A stretch of DNA of 64,000 bases from a plasmid: assembly GCF_058153355.1 (NCBI RefSeq), contig NZ_JBLWLY010000002.1, one strand, 5' to 3'. Shown here one piece after another: positions 5,084-5,180 of the stretch (its first letter is position 1; each line of letters starts with the position of its first letter). The notes under the pieces were generated by a model. It was not told where the DNA came from. It did not search any database and saw nothing but the letters and a program-made list of their open reading frames with translations. The translations under genes were made by a program, and so were the position numbers.

Positions 5084-5180
5084 GCGTCAGCGGCATGTAA
5101 GGCGGTACTCTGTTGTTGCATATGGCAGAGGAGTAAAACCGCCGAAGCCCGGCGTAAGCCGGTACTGATTGACAGATTTC
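5084..5180. repeat. Conserved stem-loop-rich element, copy 1 of 2
   Basis: GCGTCAGCGGCATGTAAGGCGGTA..GTAAAACCGCCGAAGCCCGGCGTAAGCCGGTACTGATTGA recurs at 63096-63190 with a variable centre. Confidence 0.5.

Follow-up and report, generated by a model that had tools for sequence, protein, structure and literature searches.

Two orphan repeats in a Shigella-type virulence plasmid are very probably G sites, the primase-dependent priming signals of IncFII/IncI replicons

Results

Two direct copies of a three-hairpin element lie in stumps of two replicons

The window analyzed here is the whole stretch of 64,000 nucleotides of plasmid DNA. The host plasmid is IS-rich and carries ospD3, ospZ, and icsP-like Shigella virulence genes, as in pINV-type plasmids. 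IS21 is present three times in the window (11071–13201, 33930–35590, and 63191–64000), other 100%-identical direct or inverted repeats of up to 1.8 kb lie around the Shigella-type virulence genes, and positions 1–96 form a tandem array of about 10 units of the 8-mer TTGCTCTT.

The original prediction had called a conserved element twice, at 5084–5180 and at 63096–63190. Our analysis confirmed two direct copies at these coordinates, both on the + strand. At full extent, copy 1 covers 5079–5167 and is followed by a conserved 3′ flank up to about 5204, while copy 2 covers 63092–63190. The two copies (repeat family D19) share 89% identity over 87 nt, and a 34-mer (CCGCCGAAGCCCGGCGTAAGCCGGTACTGATTGA) that runs from the second hairpin's 3′ arm through the third hairpin to TACTGATTGA is identical in their 3′ halves (2 matches versus 0 expected from 100 shuffles). 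The variable centre reported earlier is genuine and corresponds to 5107–5137 in copy 1 and 63118–63148 in copy 2. A scan of the 64-kb window with covariance models detected no third copy.

From 5′ to 3′ on the + strand, copy 1 consists of hairpin III (5079–5096; ATGCCGC GTCA GCGGCAT), whose loop region GCGTCAGC fits GCGNNAGC; hairpin II (5101–5143), with the base GGCGGT/ACCGCC around the variable centre; hairpin I (5149–5162; CCGGC GTAA GCCGG), which holds the mini-hairpin motif GCGTAAGC; and the pentamer TACTG (5163–5167), as found in the G4 oric. Hairpins III, II, and I are seen on folding and are helices 1, 2, and 3 of alignment A7. The CTG (5165–5167) begins 2 nt past hairpin I, and its T is the predicted primase start. 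The conserved 3′ flank (ATTGACAGATTTCACCTTACCCATCCC..., 5168–5204, +) shows the column conservation YTGAYAGRTTYCRCCAAT across genera. Copy 2 (63092–63178, +) has the same layout, with hairpin III at 63092–63107, hairpin II at 63112–63154, hairpin I at 63160–63173, and TACTG at 63174–63178, followed by a shortened 3′ flank (ATTGATAGATTT, 63179–63190, +) that is interrupted by IS21. It is 98% identical to the IncI1/B/O plasmid L004, where the homologous flank runs on as CACCTTACCC.

The region 5078–5441, from the element through a palindromic hairpin, matches an R100-like replicon (88.6%). What is left at copy 1 is, in this order, the element, a conserved block, a Ter site, the hairpin, and a repA fragment. 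The block (5229–5330, +; 115 bits), a near-invariant structured segment of the same replicon module lying between Ter and the element, is found 45–60 nt 3′ of copy 1. The Ter site (5368–5381, −; consensus GAATGTTGTAACTA) is the element-proximal member of an inverted pair. The strong hairpin that had been noticed past copy 1 is indeed there and is a perfect 22-bp palindrome (5388–5434), which lies between the two Ter sites in intact replicons. A 77-bp internal fragment of IncFII repA follows (5440–5516, −), with the deletion junction at 5441/5440. The equivalent of positions 3369–4459 of the R100-like locus L001 is missing, that is, the oriR-proximal Ter, oriR, and the 3′ part of repA; the Ter consensus GNRNGTTGTAAYKA has accordingly one copy in the window. 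The sequence past the repA fragment is unrelated and may be an IS.

The left flank of copy 1 (4213–5123) is also present in Shigella dysenteriae pSD1_197. In that plasmid (L002 3995–4000), a different deletion has brought the DnaA box of oriR directly against the variable centre of the element, removing the origin and leaving repA intact; its decay route differs from that of the window, with the same left flank. Within this shared flank, a ColE1-type RNAI-like sequence (RF00106; 4801–4925, −; 42.4 bits versus a gathering threshold of 47, E=2.6e-6), with a promoter-like site beside it (4737–4765, +), appears to be a ColE1-like replicon fragment just left of copy 1. The region of a 157-aa ORF left of copy 1 (4308–4803) has a second copy, with 87–94% identity, at 18889–19378, and no G site adjoins this second copy.

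The segment 62296–63190, which ends with copy 2, is 98.5% identical to IncI1/B/O plasmids over 895 bp. Its left part (62296–63091, −) encodes a RelE/ParE toxin and a ribbon-helix-helix (RHH) antitoxin (about 62467–63026), a pair found downstream of the element in IncI1/B/O plasmids. On the other side, copy 2 abuts an IS21 terminus, in agreement with the original prediction. This is the istB-proximal end of an IS21 copy (63191–64000, −) that is 99.4% identical to the full 2131-bp copy at 11071–13201. Between the CTG of copy 2 (63176–63178) and the start of the IS21 end (TGTCAACGCC...) at 63191, 12 nt remain; the insertion removes the rest of the conserved flank and beyond.

No intact repA was found anywhere in the window. 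Given this absence and the truncation by a deletion or by IS21, both copies are stumps of two different RepA-type replicons; judged by sequence, copy 1 is an IncFII-type stump and copy 2 an IncI1/B/O-type stump. As no origin adjoins either of them, the best reading is that they are relics that look intact, rather than functioning parts of an origin.

The element forms three conserved hairpins

The short GC stems with GTAA/GTCA loops that had been described correspond to three hairpins per copy when the + strand is folded as single-stranded DNA (ssDNA). In both copies these are ATGC(C)GC-GTCA-GC(G)GCAT, then GGCGGT...ACCGCC around the variable centre, then CCGGC-GTAA-GCCGG, followed by TACTG. 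The fold z-scores were −4.4 and −3.7 for the two copies, and none of 200 shuffles folded as well.

Family copies are found down to about 75% identity and fall into two classes. The first has GGCGGY/RCCGCC in hairpin II and a four-base loop in hairpin I, and the second (class B) has GGCGCC/GGCGCC and a three-base loop. A first covariance model, built with MAFFT from both classes, mis-registered helices II and III (74% paired) and was rebuilt from the class-B alignment. With this class-B-only model, which had been trained on neither window copy, copy 1 scored 57.9 bits and copy 2 49.9 bits, compared to 55.4 and 46.6 bits for the copies in the intact replicons L001 and L004. The orphan copies thus equal or exceed the copies of intact replicons and show no decay.

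Structure prediction with covariation analysis, which had been proposed as a check, gave a conserved three-hairpin structure in an alignment of 25 copies drawn from many genera of Enterobacterales. In this alignment, which was fitted to the covariance model and therefore favours structure, the three helices have 97.8% of their cells paired, compared to 87.0% after shuffling and 27–47% when the partners are slid; 12 of the 18 pairs show compensatory changes, and none of 500 shuffles reached the observed values. RNAalifold run on the plain MAFFT alignment of class B, which is independent of this fitting, predicts exactly the three hairpins and points in the same direction, as do the single-sequence folds. 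Counted by helix in A7, compensatory changes affect all 7 pairs of helix 1 (hairpin III), where 96% of cells are paired; helix 2 (hairpin II) is 98% paired, with the variants GGCGGY/RCCGCC, GGCGCC/GGCGCC, and GGTGCC/GGCACC; and helix 3 (hairpin I) is 100% paired. The 3′ flank, T(T)AC..YTGAYAGRTTYCRCC, is conserved as strongly as the stems, which fits a candidate contact region for primase.

Conserved helices with compensatory changes are equally compatible with RNA, and the original prediction had listed a small RNA among its options. The hairpins would then be the structure of a small or cis-acting RNA encoded by, or including, the element. In favour of this reading are a few G-U pairs on the + strand of the element and, on the − strand, the call of a terminator-like hairpin plus T-run in each copy. 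The terminator-like calls, however, use different hairpins in the two copies, and a terminator was rejected for this reason. The Rfam search that had been suggested returned no family: Rfam 15 gave no match over either copy at the gathering threshold in a scan of the whole window, and none over copy 1 at E<=10. There is no promoter-like site in or just upstream of either copy. In intact replicons, moreover, the flanking genes are encoded on the opposite strand, directed away from the element, and a large hairpin separates repA transcription from it. As described below, the element is linked to oriR and Ter, keeps to one strand, and carries TACTG and a mini-hairpin motif, all of which are features of a DNA priming signal, and we consider an RNA very unlikely.

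The element has a fixed place in IncFII/IncI replicons

The BLAST search for copy number, another proposed check, detected the element in at least 5000 plasmid records, at 1–4 places per record. Conjugative IncF plasmids of E. coli, Klebsiella, Shigella, and Salmonella make up most of the blastn matches listed. In the records that we examined, the feature column over the element nearly always reads "none" or "hypothetical protein".

These replicons share the order repA, oriR, an inverted pair of Tus Ter sites, and the element. In the R100-like L001, read along the + strand of the window, the element (3002–3090) is followed by the 100-nt block, a Ter site, the long palindromic hairpin, the second inverted Ter, the AT-rich part of oriR, a DnaA box (about 3668–3676), and the end of repA on the other strand; the Ter sites are at 3295–3308 (−) and 3431–3444 (+), and the repA stop is at 3851. 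In R100 itself the element lies at 90393–90522 (128.6 bits), 724 bp downstream of the repA stop, and the R100/L001 copy is 93% identical to copy 1 over 113 nt. The same layout is seen in the IncI1/B/O plasmid L004, where the RelE/RHH toxin–antitoxin pair comes next.

We then scanned one genome per species with an IncFII/IncI RepA alignment and obtained 31 repA loci, from Klebsiella, Citrobacter, Enterobacter, Pantoea, Erwinia, Mixta, Izhakiella, Hafnia, Yersinia, Salmonella, and others. Covariance models found a clear copy of the element in 21 of the 27 sufficiently long loci and a degenerate copy in three more. Every clear copy is located about 700–970 bp downstream of repA, on the strand opposite to it. 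A primer starting from the CTG would grow toward lower coordinates, away from oriR, which makes the + strand the leading-strand template of a unidirectional fork. In 15 of the 30 loci with a match, two inverted Ter copies, separated by about 130 bp, enclose the 22-bp palindromic hairpin. This inverted pair between oriR and the element matches the terRL/terRR pair described for R1. In R1, the leading-strand start site is separated from the minimal origin by two ter sites; one almost immediately halts the fork that heads back to oriR, and the other halts the main fork once it has gone round the plasmid (PMC10331603). The Ter orientations that we read from the sequence agree with this arrangement.

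Some replicons depart from the common layout. The Enterobacter replicon L018 carries two tandem copies of the element (4109–4237 and 4248–4377, −), and in L006 (Klebsiella) and L014 (Pantoea) a hairpin-rich insertion of about 190 bp separates the element from the conserved block. The F plasmid has a diverged copy (32 bits; L038 15401–15532, −, which is F 65401–65532) between a DUF932 gene and an SLT transglycosylase gene, adjoining oriT; we infer that it is on the transferred strand. A weaker candidate in F (13.5 bits; L038 3905–4023, −) has a hairpin capped by GCGAAAGC. F ssiA was not supported as a homologue, as the model finds nothing near repE/oriV-2, the reported place of ssiA.

It had also been suggested that the element is the end of a mobile element. 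A terminus, an attachment site, or a recombination site would account for its place at module boundaries and beside an IS. The homology among IncFII, IncI1, and the window starts exactly at the 5′ edge of the element (5078/5083), one endpoint of the pSD1_197 deletion falls inside its centre, and in two different plasmids an IS21 insertion lies 3′ of the start motif, at a distance of 19 nt in one and 54 nt in the other. On the 3′ side, however, the homology runs on for another 260 bp, and the element lacks an inverted partner copy, a target duplication, and a transposase or integrase gene associated with it. The full IS21 copy begins with TGTCAACGCC at 11071, the same end as at 63191, and there its left flank is unrelated and has no such element beside it. 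Because the IS21 end is identical at other, unrelated IS21 copies, the element is a flank of IS21 and not its terminus. Its position relative to repA and oriR is, furthermore, fixed in about 21 diverse replicons. A mobile-element end or recombination site is therefore extremely improbable. A known IS terminus or an absence of conserved structure had been put forward as what would speak against the prediction; we found the structure strongly conserved, and the element is not the IS21 terminus, the IS interrupting its 3′ flank.

The two IS21 insertions are independent events in the same orientation, 35 bp apart in the 3′ flanks of the element, one in the window (63190/63191) and one in the E. 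coli plasmid pS19_651-a (L039 2634/2635), where the start motif is TACGG instead of TACTG. They could reflect a regional preference of IS21 or selection to inactivate a redundant replicon.

The element resembles the G4 origin in architecture and motifs

In the G4 record, the primer is annotated at 3970–3997 and the origin at 3998. On the viral strand, the G4 oric forms three hairpins with CTACTG after them, and the primer starts opposite T3997, the T of CTG (PMC6783573). Hairpin I of G4 carries GCGAAAGC, those of St-1 and alpha3 carry GCGTTAGC, and GCGNNAGC and GCGNAGC are unusually stable mini-hairpin motifs (PMC13037366). Like the complementary-strand origins of G4, St-1, alpha3, and phiK, the element has three hairpins on the template strand, a hairpin I with a GCGNNAGC mini-hairpin, and a total span of about 100 nt, and in both window copies TACTG stands directly 3′ of hairpin I, as CTACTG does in G4. 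The window core CGGCGTAAGCCG matches CGGCGAAAGCCG of G4 at 11 of 12 positions, the differing position being one loop base. Hairpin I of both window copies contains GCGTAAGC, and the mini-hairpin motif GCGN(N)AGC occurs in hairpin I of 23 of the 25 family copies and in hairpin III of 11. A CTG lies within 16 nt 3′ of hairpin I in 13 of the 25 copies; most others have TTG at this conserved YTG position and still fit the DnaG start rule 3′-PuPyPy-5′ (PMC3167613).

The stem lengths and the order of long and short hairpins, in contrast, differ from those of G4. None of the three covariance models matched the G4 genome at E<=1, and a blastn search of 50,697 phage records yielded nothing beyond chance matches of 24 nt (E=5), with no microvirus match. 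As there is neither a model match nor alignable homology, what the element shares with the phage origin is architecture and motifs. By analogy, the element would work like the G4 oric without being a member of it by descent.

A neighbouring block is more conserved than the element

The 100-nt block is far more conserved than the element: it is near-invariant at about 25 IncFII/IncI loci from many genera. It has no Rfam match, and no description of it was found in the literature; our literature search for sequence strings gave no match either. Since the block is more conserved and more widespread, and GTACTG follows it in R100, it could be the primary signal. The block (5229–5330) would then be the experimentally defined leading-strand priming signal, and the three-hairpin repeat would be accessory, for example a second, weaker single-strand initiation (ssi) signal or an SSB-phasing structure.

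Several observations go with this reading, which is the serious alternative. The block is present in 24–25 of the 27 sufficiently long loci, including L009 and L029, in which no three-hairpin element was detected, and L027 and L032, in which the element is degenerate. RNAalifold predicts a closed two-arm structure of 29 pairs, six of them compensatory, with G-U pairs on the strand of the repeat, and the block contains GCGTTAGC. A derivative of R1 has reportedly two ssi signals. However, the TACTG after the block is not conserved outside R100-like plasmids, and the G4-like layout of three hairpins followed by a start motif belongs to the repeat and not to the block. The distances also differ: the block ends about 233 bp from the estimated oriR boundary, whereas the CTG of the repeat is at about 400 bp, the distance reported for the G site. 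We thus regard it as quite unlikely that the block is the defined signal; it may be the second ssi signal of the R1 derivative.

Discussion

The G site is a single-strand initiation signal that is recognized directly by the host DnaG primase together with SSB. The G site of R1 and R100 was reportedly described as a primase-dependent leading-strand priming signal by Masai & Arai in 1989 and by Tanaka et al. in 1994. In R1, the leading strand is reported to start, both in vitro and in vivo, at a G site that needs primase only and lies about 400 bp downstream of oriR. The G site of R100 is reported to have two conserved essential domains with a dispensable internal domain between them. In L001, the CTG of the element lies about 400 bp from the estimated far edge of oriR. 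The reported distance and domain layout match our map and the conserved flanks around a variable centre.

According to our sequence analysis, both copies in the window are very probably plasmid G sites, that is, primase-dependent, G4-type priming signals of IncFII/IncI replicons. That this element coincides with the G site mapped experimentally is probable and relies on the reported distance of about 400 bp downstream of oriR and on our map. Of the three options offered by the original prediction, a replication or transfer structure stands, for replication, as a fixed part of the replicons, while the small RNA and the mobile-element end do not.

The element has, besides its sequence and ssDNA structure, a definite place and strand relative to repA, oriR, and Ter, and motifs in common with G4; both window copies are predicted to be still able to prime. 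In an intact replicon, RepA-dependent opening at oriR and unwinding by the helicase would expose the strand with the three hairpins. The hairpins would exclude SSB and position the primase. Immediately past hairpin I, the primase would initiate at the T of the CTG, copying back through that hairpin. The primer would then be extended as the leading strand, away from oriR.

With the G site of R1/R100, the window copies share the same element, which occupies the same place beyond oriR and the Ter pair on the leading-strand template; unlike it, they are detached from any origin. An ssi signal adjoining the origin of the IncI1 plasmid ColIb-P9 is said to have been described by Tanaka et al. in 1991. 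In IncI1/B/O plasmids the element likewise lies between the rep origin region and the RelE/RHH pair, whereas the origin side of copy 2 has been replaced by IS21.

Other single-strand signals differ more. Frpo of F is a hairpin of about 300 nt that forms a promoter for RNA polymerase; a Frpo-like single-strand promoter was rejected for the repeat, whose stems contain no −35/−10 hexamer pair. The AAGCGG hexamer is typical of n′-pas sites; it is absent from the repeat and present on the − strand of the neighbouring 100-nt block. Sites of the phiX174 n′-pas type and ColE1 ssiA/ssiB are hairpin-forming single-strand initiation signals near plasmid origins (PMC3167613), and RSF1010 ssiA/ssiB and F Frpo are single-strand hairpin signals that start complementary-strand synthesis (PMC13037366). 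The n′-pas sites need PriA and the full primosome, whereas the G site needs primase alone. The RSF1010 sites, unlike the G site, are 40-nt signals read by the plasmid's own RepB′ primase. For the G4 oric, primase and SSB suffice; G4 uses its site for conversion of the viral single strand, while the plasmid uses it for the start of the leading strand.

The repeat could also be half of a larger module that includes an undescribed essential block, or detached G sites could persist because they are functional; we hold either to be unlikely. In the first case, the block would be a second priming or loading signal, or a structured RNA, of IncFII/IncI replicons. In the second, intact G sites would be kept in IS-rich virulence plasmids as autonomous primase entry sites or as preferred IS21 targets.

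The biology of the G site is already known and was described in the late 1980s and 1990s. The discovery value is therefore small: the element is a classical piece of plasmid replication, and both copies are relics. Scans keep flagging it as a mystery repeat because it is almost never annotated and has no Rfam-like model; the two covariance models from the present analysis would annotate G sites. Our cross-genus comparison gives clean covariation support for the three-hairpin structure of a signal that is DNA and not RNA. As orphans, the G sites would mark the positions of former IncFII-type and IncI-type replicons in a mosaic Shigella-type virulence plasmid.
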